Of a DNA stretch of 64,000 bases, positions 18,854 to 59,555 are shown piece after piece. A program made the position numbers and the translations under genes. The notes below the pieces were generated by a model. That model did no database searches. It saw only the letters and a program-made list of their open reading frames with translations, and had not been told where the DNA came from. Every line of letters begins with the position of its first letter. Within the stretch, counting starts at the first letter, position 1. Source of the DNA: a virus (lineage: Duplodnaviria > Caudoviricetes); IMG/VR virus record IMGVR_UViG_3300010261_000001, positions 6,378 to 70,377 of that record; one strand, given 5' to 3'.

Positions 18854-18938
18854 TGGTGGGAAGTAGTGGAGTCGAACCACTCGAGTCTAAGACAACGGAT
18901 TTACAGTCCGCACCGCTACCTCTACGGTATAACTTCCC
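18854..18938 (-). tRNA. trnY: tRNA-Tyr (GTA)
   Basis: GGGAAGT/ACTTCCC acceptor, CT-GTA-AA loop, long variable arm, CCA end. Confidence 0.92.
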
Positions 18939-37176: not shown

Positions 37177-37893
37177 TTAAAACATTGTTGTTTGCCTATC
37201 TTCCCAGTAAAATTTTTCTTCTAATTCCTGTATGCTGTAATCACTTCTGAATTTTCTTCCAAACTGTTTTATGCTTCTAAAGTCATATTCTTTCATCTTT
37301 TGCCAAAGTTCATGATAATCTCTGTATATTACTTTTAGTTCCCCTAATCGTTGTAATGGACATAGATAGCAACTTACTCTGTCTAATTTCTCATACAGTC
37401 CATTCCAATCAAAGCCTTTACTATAGCAATACTCTAAACAGTCTCTTTCTGTCATTCCCCATTCAATTAAAGGATGCTTAATATTTCTTCCATCTTTATT
37501 TTTCTTTGCCCTATGTGATTCATCTAGTGCTATGCCATGATATTCTGTTACTTCTTCATATTTGCTTAGGTACTGACTTATTAATTGCTTTTTAAGTGCT
37601 TGAGTGCACCATCTGTTTCTAAAATCAGGCCATGAGTATCCTTTTTTACCTTTGTTTTTACCTTTCGTTTTCTCATATTCAAACATTAGATATTCAAAGC
37701 TGTACTGACTTTTTAATACTGTTATTTTTCTGCCGACCATCTTCTCGACCTCGGCAATATGGTCGTACATCTCTGGAAATTCTACTCCTGTGTCACCAAA
37801 TATTATTTCATCTATTTGCATATCTTCTTCTAATATTCTTAGTAATAATGCTGTACTGTCTTTGCCACCTGAAAAACTAACTATATGTTTCAC
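37177..37893 (-). CDS. PAPS reductase family (PP-loop) protein
   Basis: KHIVSFSGGKDS, RWCT, RVSCYLCP; GTG start at 37893. Confidence 0.85.
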   Translation of the reverse strand: MKHIVSFSGGKDSTALLLRILEEDMQIDEIIFGDTGVEFPEMYDHIAEVEKMVGRKITVLKSQYSFEYLMFEYEKTKGKNKGKKGYSWPDFRNRWCTQALKKQLISQYLSKYEEVTEYHGIALDESHRAKKNKDGRNIKHPLIEWGMTERDCLEYCYSKGFDWNGLYEKLDRVSCYLCPLQRLGELKVIYRDYHELWQKMKEYDFRSIKQFGRKFRSDYSIQELEEKFYWEDRQTTMF

Positions 37894-55437: not shown

Positions 55438-55932
55438 TTATTTTAGTTTTTGTATTTGCTTACATATATAATTTATGGTTTCTTTCATTTCTAACTCATC
55501 GTTGATAGATAAGATAATTTTAGCTAAAGGAACCAAATGCTTATCTATGTCTTTTTTATTACTTGTCGTTATTTGTTTATCCCTCTTCATAAATGTTATG
55601 TCGTTTGGCTTTTTACTAACTTCTTCGAATCCTTGTTTTTTAAATATATTTTTCGAACCCTTTGTGGCAAAAACGCTCATATTCTTATCATTTCTCAATA
55701 CATGTTCTACTAACGCTGTACCTATACCTTTGTTCTTGTAATTATTTTCAACTAAAAAACCTTTTATTCTTGCTATGTTTTTATATTCTAGTGTAGATAT
55801 AACGCCTACAAGAAGATTATCTTTGTAGTAGCCCCAATGGATTCCTTTTTCATTTATTGAGACTTGTTTTTTTGAAGAACCATTTTGTCTTAGAAACGAT
55901 GCATAGGTTTTTGAATCAATTTTTTTAATCAT
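55438..55932 (-). CDS. GNAT acetyltransferase
   Basis: FLVENNYKNKGIGTALV (motif A), F.KQGF (motif B). Confidence 0.8.
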   Translation of the reverse strand: MIKKIDSKTYASFLRQNGSSKKQVSINEKGIHWGYYKDNLLVGVISTLEYKNIARIKGFLVENNYKNKGIGTALVEHVLRNDKNMSVFATKGSKNIFKKQGFEEVSKKPNDITFMKRDKQITTSNKKDIDKHLVPLAKIILSINDELEMKETINYICKQIQKLK

Positions 55933-57253
55933 AGTTTTTCCCCCTAATAATGTTCTTGTATTTCTTCATAACCTCCCCTCTTTTTTGCTGTTCCGTTTTT
56001 GTTTGTGCAAATCCCATATACTTGCACGTGTGATCGTTTTTCATTATACAAATACACATTCGTTTATAAGTTGGAACTCTGCTAAAGTCAGTAACGTTTG
56101 TATCGTCTAAATAATCATCAAATTTTATTATCTCTTTATCGCCTTTCCCCCTTTTCGACACCTTACCAGTTCTAATAACAGGCGCTCCTTCTTCCTCTAA
56201 CTCCTTTATTGTTTGGGAATCTCTTGCACCCCCAACCTTCCAACTTTTTTTTGATACTTCTAGTTTTTTAAGATAATTTTCTCTAGCACTTTTTGGTAAT
56301 GTATCAAGTAAGAAATACATGTATTCCTTCCATGTAAAATGTTCAGGCTTTTTAATATTTTTCCATCCCATTGCTACTGTACCGCCATAGGTTCCTGCAA
56401 AATTTACTCCATTCACTCTACTGATAAGTTTTCCCCATGTATGTGGTTCTATAACTTTGTAGAGTTTTAGACTTTCTGTAGCACAATCGTTAAAAGGACT
56501 AGCTACCCTCATCTGATTTAAGGTTAATCCAGCCTGATAAAATAAATCATACAATTTATTATATTTCCATCCAAAGGTTCCGTTTGCTATCCATATATCT
56601 TCTGCTTTCCAATCGTAAATCGGATAACTTTTTATCAATTTATCGTTTTCTGGATCAACTGTACACCATTCCAATCCTTCGTATTGGTTTGTTTTTTGTT
56701 TACTCGTTATAGCAGCTTGTCTATTGAGGCTTTCATCTGCCCTCAGCCCAATCAGTACAGCTGTCTTACCATTAGCAACAGCATACCATCTACTAAAATT
56801 ATCTTGAACTTCATAATCCCAAGTACCTTTCGTAAATTTAAATGGAACATTATTTTCATTTATTACAAATTTGTTATCTGGCATATTCCTTACCCATATT
56901 TCTTTTTCTTCACTATTCCAAGGTATCCAGTGATCCTGATACATCGAAACTGCACATTGTGCTGCAACAGGTAAGCATAACCAATATTTCTTTATACCTT
57001 CAAAATCATTAATAAAACTTTCCTCTACATATTTAGTTGTATTCTCGTACTGAGCTTCATAATCTAAGTGATACATTGCTAGCTTACCTAAATTATTAGT
57101 TTCTTTAGCATATTGATAGCATGAATTTAATAAAATGCCGCTATCTTTACCACCACTAAAAGCTACTAGTACATTGTCAAATTCTTTAAATATATATTCC
57201 AGTCTTTCCTGTGTAGCTTCATATACATTTTTACCCGTATAAATTTTAGGCAA
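55925..57253 (-). CDS. ibrA: PAPS-reductase/DUF3440 protein (IbrA/YbdN-like)
   Basis: FSGGKDS, GLRADESLNR, YPIYDW, MRVASPF, CICIMKND. Confidence 0.88.
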   Translation of the reverse strand: MPKIYTGKNVYEATQERLEYIFKEFDNVLVAFSGGKDSGILLNSCYQYAKETNNLGKLAMYHLDYEAQYENTTKYVEESFINDFEGIKKYWLCLPVAAQCAVSMYQDHWIPWNSEEKEIWVRNMPDNKFVINENNVPFKFTKGTWDYEVQDNFSRWYAVANGKTAVLIGLRADESLNRQAAITSKQKTNQYEGLEWCTVDPENDKLIKSYPIYDWKAEDIWIANGTFGWKYNKLYDLFYQAGLTLNQMRVASPFNDCATESLKLYKVIEPHTWGKLISRVNGVNFAGTYGGTVAMGWKNIKKPEHFTWKEYMYFLLDTLPKSARENYLKKLEVSKKSWKVGGARDSQTIKELEEEGAPVIRTGKVSKRGKGDKEIIKFDDYLDDTNVTDFSRVPTYKRMCICIMKNDHTCKYMGFAQTKTEQQKRGEVMKKYKNIIRGKNYD

Positions 57254-58719
57254 CTAATTCCCCTCCTTCAAGTCTTCTATATCCGTTATAGTTTCTTTTA
57301 CTTTTCCTCTAATTTTTAATCTCCCTTTGCGATCTCTTTTATAAATATAACTTTCGATAAATAATTGTTTATTATCCTTTTGCTTTTCTATTTCAGACTT
57401 AAAACTGTCTACTAAGTTTTCTTTTTTCCATAAGCATTTTAATATTCTTTCATCCAGTGTATAGGATGCACATAAATCTATTATGTGCACATTCTTATCC
57501 TGTCCTATCCTATGCACTCTATCTTCGCTTTGTGCTCTTGTAGCAAAGTCCCAATCATTTGAATAATACACAACATAACTACAAAACTGTAAATTAAGTC
57601 CATATCCAGCACATACTTTATTTGCCACTAAAAATTGAGCACCATTTCTAAAAACATCTATGTTTTTTTGCCTTTTTTTCTGATTTAGTTCTCCATAAAA
57701 AGGCACCGCCTTTCCTTCTCCATACTTTTTGTTTAATATCGCTGTGATAGTTTCGATTTCGTCTGTATATTTGCAAAATATTATTACCTTTTGATCCACG
57801 CCATCAAGCACCTCAAGCAATGTTTTTATTCTAGGATTATCATATGGAGTTTTAAAAAATGGTTCTCTTTTCATTGGACGTTCTGTCCTCGTTACCTTAA
57901 ATCCAGATATAACACTTTGTAAACCACTAAATAGCCTATATATGGTTTCCGGTTCTAGTTCATCCACTTCAAACAACAGTGTATCTGCAATTTCTTGATA
58001 ATGCCAATCTTGCATTTCATCTAATTCATAGTAAACAGTTTTGTATGATTTATTAGGTAAATCTAAGCACTCTTCTTTTCTCACCTGGTAAGTATATGGT
58101 GCTATTTTCCTTACTAAATAATCAGTATTTAAGCATCTATTAATTTTGCCCGGGATGTTAGGATCATATTCTAGGTGATTACCTGCAAAGCTCCAAAAGC
58201 TCCGATAACCTAGTATTCTCCAGTCTAAAATATACCACTGTGAAAACAAATCTTTTTCATTTCTGCTAATAGGTGTTCCGTTTAAAATTAATTTGTATTG
58301 GCAAAATTCGCTTAGTCGAATAATGTTTTTTGTCCTTTGAGCCATGTGATTTTTAACTAGATTGCTTTCGTCGACTATCAAATATACTTTTCTTTCCTGT
58401 ACTAACCTTAATAAAATAGAGTTAGCCCTAATACTGCTAGATAGTGTTTCTATGCCACATATAGTGAACATTGACAAATCACCTTCACAGTGCTTTTTTA
58501 TGTCTCTTTTTAGATTCTCCTTTACACTGCAAGGGCAAAGCCAAAGTACGTGATTAACTTTGCCCTTATCCAATCTATCTTTTATAAGTTCCAACGCTGT
58601 CCTAGTTTTTCCAGTTCCCATTTCAAGGCTTTCCAAAGATACAACGCTCCTACCTTTACTTTAGACAATTTTTCAACTGCTTTTTTCTGATGTTCATATA
58701 GGCTCGTTGTAAATCTCAT
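57254..58719 (-). CDS. SNF2-family helicase interrupted by 11-nt insert at 58625-58635
   Basis: Q motif LYEHQ in 58719 frame; EMGTGKT, DES, GYGLNLQ, QSEDRVHRIGQ in 58636 frame. Confidence 0.8.
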
Positions 58720-59495
58720 TCAACCACCTCCTCTTTATATCTCCATATGTATCCCAAATATGATGGTATCTTGTTTTTGCAACATTTAATTATTCCTGTT
58801 AAACAAGTCTTGTCTTTTGTTTTATTATTTTCTAGCAGCCATCTTGCAGCATCTGACATAACTTCAAATTCCAACTGTTTTTCCATCGTCATTTTATCAA
58901 ACGCTACTATTGGTTTGTTGTTGGAGTGTTTTAATACATTAACTGCGTGTCTCTGATTTTCTCTATTAGTAGTCCATTCTAGGTTTTTAACATTGTTATT
59001 TAATCCGTTTCCATCTTTATGGTTTACGTATGGTTTATTTGAAGGGTTTTCTATAAAGGCTGTTGCTACCAATCTATGCACAGAAAACATTTTTAGCTTT
59101 CCATTCTTGCACAAGCTAACTTGGTAATATTCAGCTTTAGATTTCTGTGTTAATAGTTTCTGACTTAAAATTTTTTCTTTTTGAACATAGCCTATCTGTG
59201 TCCTGCCTATTTTTTTTGTTTTTCTATATCTTTCTAAGCTCTTAACCCTCCCTAAATTACTAATTGCATACAACCCTTCGTAACCATTTATGTTCCTCCA
59301 GATTTCACCTTCTAGGTTTGGAACTTTAGGTAACGGTGTGTTATCTTGCTCTTTGCGTTTTCTTTTCAGTTCCCTTCTTTGCTCTTCTTTACAACATTTG
59401 CACCTGCTATCACGTCCGTATTTGCCTTTTTTGTTTCTATAAAACTCAGATAATGGTTTTTCTTTGCCGCACCTCGTACATATTCTAGTTAACAT
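58716..59495 (-). CDS. Freestanding HNH homing endonuclease (Zn finger, NUMOD4, HNH, NUMOD1-like)
   Basis: YAISNLGRVKS, VHRLVA, VNHKDG..NN...NLEW. Confidence 0.9.
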   Translation of the reverse strand: MLTRICTRCGKEKPLSEFYRNKKGKYGRDSRCKCCKEEQRRELKRKRKEQDNTPLPKVPNLEGEIWRNINGYEGLYAISNLGRVKSLERYRKTKKIGRTQIGYVQKEKILSQKLLTQKSKAEYYQVSLCKNGKLKMFSVHRLVATAFIENPSNKPYVNHKDGNGLNNNVKNLEWTTNRENQRHAVNVLKHSNNKPIVAFDKMTMEKQLEFEVMSDAARWLLENNKTKDKTCLTGIIKCCKNKIPSYLGYIWRYKEEVVE

Positions 59496-59555
59496 ATAAT
59501 CACCTCTGTACATAGTATATCATACATAGGTAAAACATACTATGCATAAAACATT

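Follow-up and report, generated by a model that had tools for sequence, protein, structure and literature searches.

How could a phage helicase gene whose reading frame is broken just before the Walker A motif still encode a helicase, and how did the break come to lie at that position? The question is raised by a minus-strand gene in the window, i.e., the whole 64,000-nt stretch of DNA analysed here, which was taken from a viral IMG/VR contig of 70.4 kb whose G+C content is 33%. The gene begins at ATG 58719, which opens MRFTTSLYEHQKKAVEKLSKVKVGALYL and overlaps the stop codon of an HNH gene (ATGA), and its junction reads TAT CTT TGGAAAGC CTT GAA ATG GGA ACT GGA AAA. Past the first CTT (58638–58636), frame 0 continues as WKALKWELEKLGQRWNL for 17 more codons to a TAA at 58584–58582, and the helicase body lies in the −1/+2 frame relative to the N-terminal coding segment, referred to below as the N-exon. 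When the 11 nt are omitted, the 28-codon N-exon and the 456-codon body join into a 484-aa product through GALYL-EMGTGKT. The features of the locus are, in the order of transcription:

59514–59555, minus strand: cassette leader, between the stop of the upstream gene (59556) and the HNH open reading frame; it aligns with the leaders of loci L283, L366 and L369.
58716–59513, minus strand: HNH homing-endonuclease gene with NUMOD4 and HNH_3, I-HmuI-like; its stop TGA overlaps the helicase ATG.
58636–58719, minus strand: N-exon of 28 codons, MRFTT...KVGALYL, the cassette-borne replacement N-terminus of the helicase, with the Q-motif helix and strand beta1.
58636–58638, minus strand: putative take-off codon CTT (Leu28), with which the N-exon ends; CTT in 13/13 recoded loci.
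58628–58635, minus strand: 8-nt coding gap TGGAAAGC; its first codon is TGG in the window and TGA in two sister alleles.
58625–58627, minus strand: putative landing codon CTT, the same as the take-off codon; found in 3/3 of the 11-nt alleles.
58622–58624, minus strand: E codon of the body, GAA in the window.
57254–58624, minus strand: helicase body, EMGTGKT... to the stop, 456 codons, SNF2-related plus Helicase_C, an intact open reading frame.

An earlier note on this DNA had described an 11-nt insert between matched CTT codons before Walker A, an ATG at 58719 coupled to the HNH stop and a 484-aa product on skipping. The coupling and the product were reproduced, and the insert proved real relative to the family. 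The junction reading was drawn from the 120 best homologues and about 190 fetched loci, all of which, the recoded alleles aside, have KVGALY[M/L]EMGTGKT with nothing between; since the homologues lack extra residues here, the 11 nt represent a true insertion. The codon before the E is ATG in 98 of 101 normal alleles vs. CTT in all 13 recoded loci, and CTT makes up only 13% of Leu codons across the window. The same note had seen the TGGAAAG...TGAAA of the junction recur at an element near 37887, a claim that did not hold: TGGAAAGNNNTGAAA occurs once in the window, at the junction alone, and the sequence at 37887 is an RBS-like GGAAAGGTGAAAC ahead of a different gene. The record is a metagenomic IMG/VR contig without read evidence, which leaves room for an assembly or sequencing artefact. 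However, an 11-nt non-repetitive insertion is atypical as an error, and the same architecture is present in the isolate Clostridium ihumii AP5 and in an independent Logan contig. An artefact is thus scarcely credible, and the insert is almost certainly a real, cassette-linked feature, even without raw-read data.

The protein interrupted by this insert satisfies what is expected of an SNF2-family helicase/ATPase, i.e., an SNF2-related N-lobe with Walker A and a Helicase_C lobe: it matches PF00176 and PF00271, contains the Walker A sequence GTGKT, scores 3.5e-90 against PHROG 62 and has more than 4000 homologues. In the AlphaFold (AF2) model of a normal homologue (P0004), the Q-motif helix spans residues 9–18, strand beta1 residues 23–28 and the P-loop residues 29–33; on this model, the junction falls between strand beta1 and the P-loop, and a body begun at Met30 would be without beta1 and the Q motif.

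Comparison of 137 homologous loci showed that the break is not confined to the window. About 124 of these loci encode the GALY[M/L]EMGTGKT region unbroken, and 13, representing 9 distinct alleles, are frame-broken at exactly the junction position. The 13 broken loci come from at least 10 samples and three helicase subfamilies, with identity down to 33%, and no break was found elsewhere in the approximately 1300 nt of helicase body in any of the 137 loci. Breaks at the same site thus exceed chance. The earlier note had proposed aligning homologues for the same or variable inserts, and both kinds were obtained, i.e., the 11-nt gap in two diverged alleles and a 1-nt break in others. The prophage of C. 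ihumii AP5 (L004; an isolate; 68% aa identity) reads TAT CTT TGAGAGTA CTT GAA ATG, and the Logan contig L079 reads TAC CTT TGAAGTAG CTT GAG ATG. Both have TGA directly after the first CTT and share the 11-nt length, the position and the flanking CTTs with the window. These three are the only 11-nt alleles known. In every pair of them, 5 of the 8 positions of the gap interior differ, with length and flanks kept. The second class, with one extra T, comprises nine loci in three helicase subfamilies: L201, L202, L203, L204 and L283 read TAT/TAC/TTC CTT T GAA ATG, and L369–372 read TTC CTT T AAA ATG, i.e., CUU UAA.

The sister alleles also bear on how the ribosome could reach the body. The earlier note had listed a −1 shift among the alternatives, and a −1 or +2 frameshift near CTT TGG would give GALYL(L)ESLEMGTGKT, with 3–4 extra residues before the P-loop; the −1 frame is indeed open through the gap in the window and in L004. 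However, this frame contains a TAG inside the gap of L079, which excludes a simple −1 shift as the common mechanism. There is also no slippery heptamer, and none of the approximately 124 normal alleles has extra residues at the site. A shift of this kind is therefore judged very unlikely. For each of the three 11-nt alleles, the TGA of cTTGA closes the +1 frame, and in L079 every frame between the CTTs is closed (frame 0 by TGA, −1 by TAG, +1 by the TGA of cTTGA), so that only a hop or fresh initiation could reach the L079 body. Three further explanations were considered and rejected. A pair of consecutive +1 shifts (CTT T ... NCT T GA) would add up to the right frame, but re-pairing on CUU is not possible for all of ACU, GCU and CCU; a T run of only 3 nt rules out slippage during transcription; and with an alternative genetic code, in which TGA is Trp, frame 0 still stops past the gap.

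Wider searches added few carriers. Viral scans for the +1 and 11-nt patterns returned only L283 and the C. ihumii prophage, the rest being in-frame A-F-E-M false positives, and a pattern search of 401 Clostridia-class genomes returned C. ihumii alone. The pattern used for the metagenome scan was too loose, all 120 of 120 matches being in-frame and in unrelated helicases (VFAYFMEMGTGKTKV), and blastn against deposited phages found no DNA relative. Gene callers shorten the recoded helicases to MGTGKT... (P0001, P0009, P0058, P0071, P0073, P0085, P0107), an annotation consequence of the junction. Two proteins called from MEMGTGKT (P0051, P0059) were considered as insert alleles and rejected, being normal alleles with an ATA-type start. 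Normal alleles that seemingly start with ATA (ATA GAA CTC ATA ACA...) were seen at L075:2915–3000 and L078:2915–3000; the apparent ATA start leads gene callers to pick the internal MEMGTGKT, which mimics truncation.

The gene upstream of the junction encodes a homing endonuclease by the criteria used here for an I-HmuI-like HNH protein (NUMOD4, HNH_3 and similarity to I-HmuI). It matches PF07463 (1.9e-12) and PF13392 (2.2e-6), aligns with PDB 1U3E at E 4.2e-15 and with PHROG 59 at 2e-43, and is 56% identical to the HNH protein of L283. The true start is probably ATG 59495 (M7, MLTRICTRCG...), since this ATG follows GAGGTG at a 5-nt spacer and the first ATG, 59513, lies inside the putative −10/RBS region. 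An N-terminal extension of 69 residues forms a CxxC...CxxC zinc-ribbon and matches endonuclease VII and Lar-like PHROGs; the L283-type HNH protein is without it. The window leader contains an extended −10-like TG-n-TATACT (59522–59514), followed by the GAGGTG at 59506–59501 as the RBS of the probable HNH start, and the L283, L366 and L369 leaders have promoter-like boxes (TTGAAA/TTTACA-17-TATAAT). A promoter consensus scan of the window leader made no call, there being no good −35. An additional perfect hairpin was observed in the relic/leader region of L368.

Judged from sequence comparison, the junction is the right boundary of a mobile cassette, which consists of the leader, the HNH gene and a replacement N-exon whose last codon is CTT. 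From the E codon on, L283 and the HNH-less L284, its sister, match at 300 of 300 positions, but upstream they are mosaic. Relics of the original N-exons remain upstream of the HNH gene in four loci (L283:2222–2350, L366:2375–2500, L369:2392–2500, L368:178–300) and end at the junction codon, the L283 relic MGYSKLKNQQLAFDKLSRLKVGALF being broken exactly there. The alleles L369–372, from four samples, show 0 differences over approximately 720 nt of HNH gene and N-exon, and polymorphism starts less than 60 nt past the site. The HNH relatives whose contigs were fetched (P0122, P0124, P0125 and P0128; 64–76% identity to the L283 HNH protein) all lie directly upstream of an SNF2 helicase. Some cassettes join the body in frame (CTT GAA in L368 and L373, ATG GAG CAG in L366), which indicates that the N-exon is meant for fusion to the body and that recoding is not obligatory for the element.

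The N-exon and the body also have different relatives. The nearest relatives of the window N-exon are the N-exons of other recoded alleles. In family A, 5 of the 7 recoded alleles have only other recoded alleles as their three closest N-exon relatives, and over the seven, recoded alleles hold 18 of 21 nearest places, the pattern being weaker for L202 and L203. In the body tree, recoded alleles are scattered among normal ones, and their body neighbours are mostly normal alleles. Six recoded loci (L204, L079, L201, L202, L203, L004) have no HNH gene, yet an HNH 3′ end or leader precedes their helicase ATG, which suggests that the nuclease was lost and the junction kept. The earlier note had offered translational bypass or a homing scar as possibilities. 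That proposal stands as far as the insert lies at an HNH cassette junction and the matched CTTs recur; the recoding itself is only inferred, and the comparative data support the bypass and homing-scar ideas jointly. What the note had not foreseen is the sister class with a 1-nt, prfB-like CUU UGA and the fact that the 28 N-terminal codons are cassette-borne.

If the junction were only an inactivating homing or repair scar that hitch-hikes with the cassette, the allele would be dead or dying and no functional helicase would be made. The window has TGG after the first CTT with frame 0 open for 17 codons more, no stimulatory signals were found, the SNF2-IbrA-IbrB module to which the gene belongs may be dispensable, and costly alleles can spread by selfish drive (bioRxiv 10.1101/2022.08.31.505936, discussion), all of which leave room for this possibility. 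However, the bodies (379–456 codons), starts, RBSs and N-exons are intact in 13/13 broken loci. The N-exon omega is 0.10–0.48 between recoded alleles (0.13–0.20 for the window N-exon vs. those of L201, L079 and L004) and 0.1–0.3 in the cassette lineage despite a synonymous divergence (dS) of about 1, showing purifying selection. While the gap interior has drifted apart at 5 of 8 positions, the two CTTs, the landing one included, have persisted, as have the TG and the GAR ATG, and the six recoded alleles without an HNH gene still keep the gene whole. Because the cassette changes backgrounds, the body dN/dS of 0.04–0.18 mostly dates from before insertion and is no proof of selection afterwards. 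A dead allele is unlikely on this evidence, although it cannot be dismissed.

The reading preferred here, with a probability of roughly 0.6, is a cassette like that of T4 mobA/gene 60, recoded by either a +1 shift or an 11-nt stop-hop, in which recoding, cleavage and protection are all inferred. Beyond the observed insert, its recurrence, the cassette boundaries with their mosaicism and the purifying selection on the N-exon, the proposed steps are as follows. By analogy with MobA, the HNH protein would cut or nick cassette-free alleles at or near ...TAT ATG|GAA ATG GG..., and repair would then copy the cassette into the target. The changed junction (CTT, CTT + 1 nt or CTT + 11 nt) would spoil the target of the cassette's own HNH protein, a step that is likewise inferred. 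During translation, the peptidyl-tRNA-Leu on CUU may re-pair forward while the A-site codon is decoded slowly: in the 1-nt alleles, the tRNA would move +1 onto UUU, as at the prfB/RF2 shifty stop, and in the 11-nt alleles it would land on the matching CUU, 11 nt farther downstream, in what amounts to a stop-hop or short bypass. Both routes would lead to the GALYL-EMGTGKT product, and the junction peptide expected from recoding in C. ihumii AP5 is VGALYLEMGTGK. The A-site codon after take-off is UGA or UAA in 12 of the 13 loci and UGG in the window, and matched take-off and landing codons (CTT...CTT) are present in 3/3 of the 11-nt alleles, with TGA after take-off in 2/3 and TGG in the window. 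Without RNA or protein data, translational recoding is considered fairly likely for at least the stop-containing alleles. Whether the window's own TGG allele is productively hopped is an evenly balanced matter, again without such data; with UGG in place of a stop, take-off may be inefficient or the copy may be in decay.

Stimulatory signals were sought at the junctions without success. Complementarity to the 16S 3′ tail, assessed as duplex energies, was no better than that of shuffled sequences, so no SD-like stimulator was identified, and the K-V-G-encoded GGTAGGTG sits 8–10 nt, not 3 nt, before the CUU. RNA folding of the junctions gave no shared or conserved structure, with z-scores of about 0. 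In some +1 alleles (L283:2997–3020; L201:2988–3011), the shift site lies in the 7-nt loop of an 8-bp hairpin, UUGUUCCU UUGAAAU GGGAACAG (UUGUUCC...GGGAACA), with z = −2.7 in L283; this hairpin is not kept in all alleles. The only tRNA found in the window is a tRNA-Tyr(GTA) at 18854–18938, and a UAU (Tyr) codon precedes the take-off CUU, a match that is probably a coincidence.

The helicase could also be a gene in pieces, in which the 28-aa N-peptide ends and synthesis of the body begins anew at the ATG of E-M-GTGKT, either through reinitiation or with the help of a weak RBS within the gap, the pieces then associating or the body sufficing alone. In the 1-nt alleles, a single nucleotide separates stop and ATG (TGA A ATG), a spacing classic for coupling; the gaps are purine-rich; and HNH-split genes with assembling halves are known, i.e., T4 gp39/gp60 and Aeh1 NrdA. 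However, such a split would run through a single RecA fold, with beta1 and the Q motif on one side and the P-loop on the other, and the same N-exon is fused to the body in the in-frame cassette alleles. No SD-like pairing above shuffled sequences precedes the ATG, and the N-peptide reading frame of the window overlaps this ATG by 37 nt, with no stop before it. The conserved landing CTT and GAR codon, untranslated in such a split, would also be left unexplained. Independent production of the two pieces is accordingly regarded as quite unlikely.

A known system close to the proposed stop-hop and shift cassette is T4 mobA/gene 60, in which ribosomes decode gene 60 by bypassing 50 nt (Manning & Atkins, bioRxiv 10.1101/2022.08.31.505936; Bonocora et al. 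2011 cited there). The MobA element of T4 combines an HNH gene with an element-encoded replacement region and a bypass located where the insert ends 3′; this bypass prevents self-nicking, and in many cases the endonuclease has later disappeared while the bypass persists (bioRxiv 10.1101/2022.08.31.505936). The helicase cassette likewise has an HNH gene inserted in a conserved phage gene, its own replacement coding sequence and a recoding signal at the 3′ end of the insert. Like the T4 element, it has matching take-off and landing codons, a stop or slowly decoded codon directly behind take-off, frequent loss of the nuclease and repeated insertion at one site. Besides the matching codons, it satisfies two further requirements for a MobA-type element: the HNH gene adjoins the recoding site within one mobile unit, with boundaries drawn from L283/L284 and L369–372, and the target replacement (HomR) is element-encoded and ends at the recoding signal. 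In contrast, it targets an SNF2 helicase, at a point between beta1 and the Walker A loop, and not the Toprim domain of a topoisomerase; the carriers are low-GC Clostridia-type phages and prophages, not T4-like myoviruses; the break is an 8-nt gap (11-nt shift) or a 1-nt +1 break, as against 50 nt in gene 60; a take-off hairpin, a gap SD and a nascent-peptide signal all went undetected, nor has sequence homology to the gene 60 cassette come to light; and the whole N-terminus is replaced, the gene not being left as two functional open reading frames. The features specific to gene 60 (50-nt gap, take-off stem-loop, gap SD and Topo2L target) are not met, and their absence indicates that the helicase cassette works like the mobA/gene 60 family without being a member.

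The 1-nt alleles resemble a different system. The prfB frameshift site is built around UAU CUU UGA (PMC13245932), and the 1-nt alleles have UAU CUU UGA or UUC CUU UGA/UAA, the UAU spacer codon often being shared. A shifty stop, defined as CUU UGA with the downstream reading frame at +1, is present in L201–204 and L283; L369–372 have CUU UAA. The window allele does not qualify, its shift being 11 nt (+2 frame). Unlike prfB, the junctions lack an SD-like element 3 nt upstream, the upstream sequence being GCA TTG TAT, and the base after the stop is A, not C; the gene is not RF2 and has no autoregulatory logic, and one lineage uses UAA. C. ihumii, the host of L004, has a programmed +1 site in its own prfB (AAGGTG TCT CTT TGA C; L380:1490–1540). 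For the 11-nt alleles, a close precedent is provided by the stop-hops and short bypassing observed in E. coli (Weiss et al. 1987, reviewed in PMC5009743), in which a peptidyl-tRNA also re-pairs at a matched codon a few nt past a stop. However, those events were synthetic or low-level, whereas a natural gene would depend on the event here. As a mobile element, the cassette recalls the free-standing and intron-less homing endonucleases of phages, i.e., I-HmuI of SPO1 and Seg/Mob of T4 (PMC2988022). It shares with them an I-HmuI-like HNH with NUMOD4, co-conversion of the flanks and a sporadic distribution among close relatives, but it is not intron-encoded and carries a duplicated exon and a frame-breaking junction.

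No paper was found in the literature that describes HNH-linked recoding at the Walker A site of a helicase. To our knowledge, little beyond T4 gene 60, its homologues and some yeast mitochondria offers natural bypassing that is efficient, and little beyond prfB offers CUU UGA +1 shifting. The cassettes described here may represent a second, independent family of homing endonuclease plus recoding cassettes that invades phage SNF2 helicases at the Walker A codons, with its own N-exon, a self-protecting frame-breaking junction and two interchangeable repairs, i.e., a +1 shift of the RF2 type at CUU UGA/UAA or a stop-hop of 11 nt from CUU to CUU; this wider proposal could equally well prove right or wrong. 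What is new is the presence of prfB-type +1 and 11-nt hop junctions at one site, with a mapped cassette boundary and a cultured carrier, the isolate C. ihumii AP5. Whichever of the two signals occupies this position, it is linked to an HNH cassette in every case. If the proposal is true, natural short hops would be a decoding mode in actual use, and helicase output would be tied to release-factor activity. If recoding is confirmed, selfish endonucleases would repeatedly recruit it, disarming their own target without destroying the host gene. The junctions would also be short enough (1 and 11 nt) to serve as convenient test pieces when the rules of take-off and landing are studied in Firmicutes.

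The genomic setting of the helicase deserves a separate comment. Downstream of it (window 55438–57253) lie a DUF3440/PAPS-reductase-like (IbrA-like) gene and a GNAT gene, which places the helicase in an SNF2-IbrA-IbrB module of unknown function rather than in an obvious replication module. In L075:5821–6834 and L076:4982–5995, a different NUMOD/I-HmuI-like HNH was found fused or adjacent to a ParB-like (IbrB) gene, downstream of IbrA; this HNH at the IbrB gene in cassette-free phages may mark another homing site of the same module.
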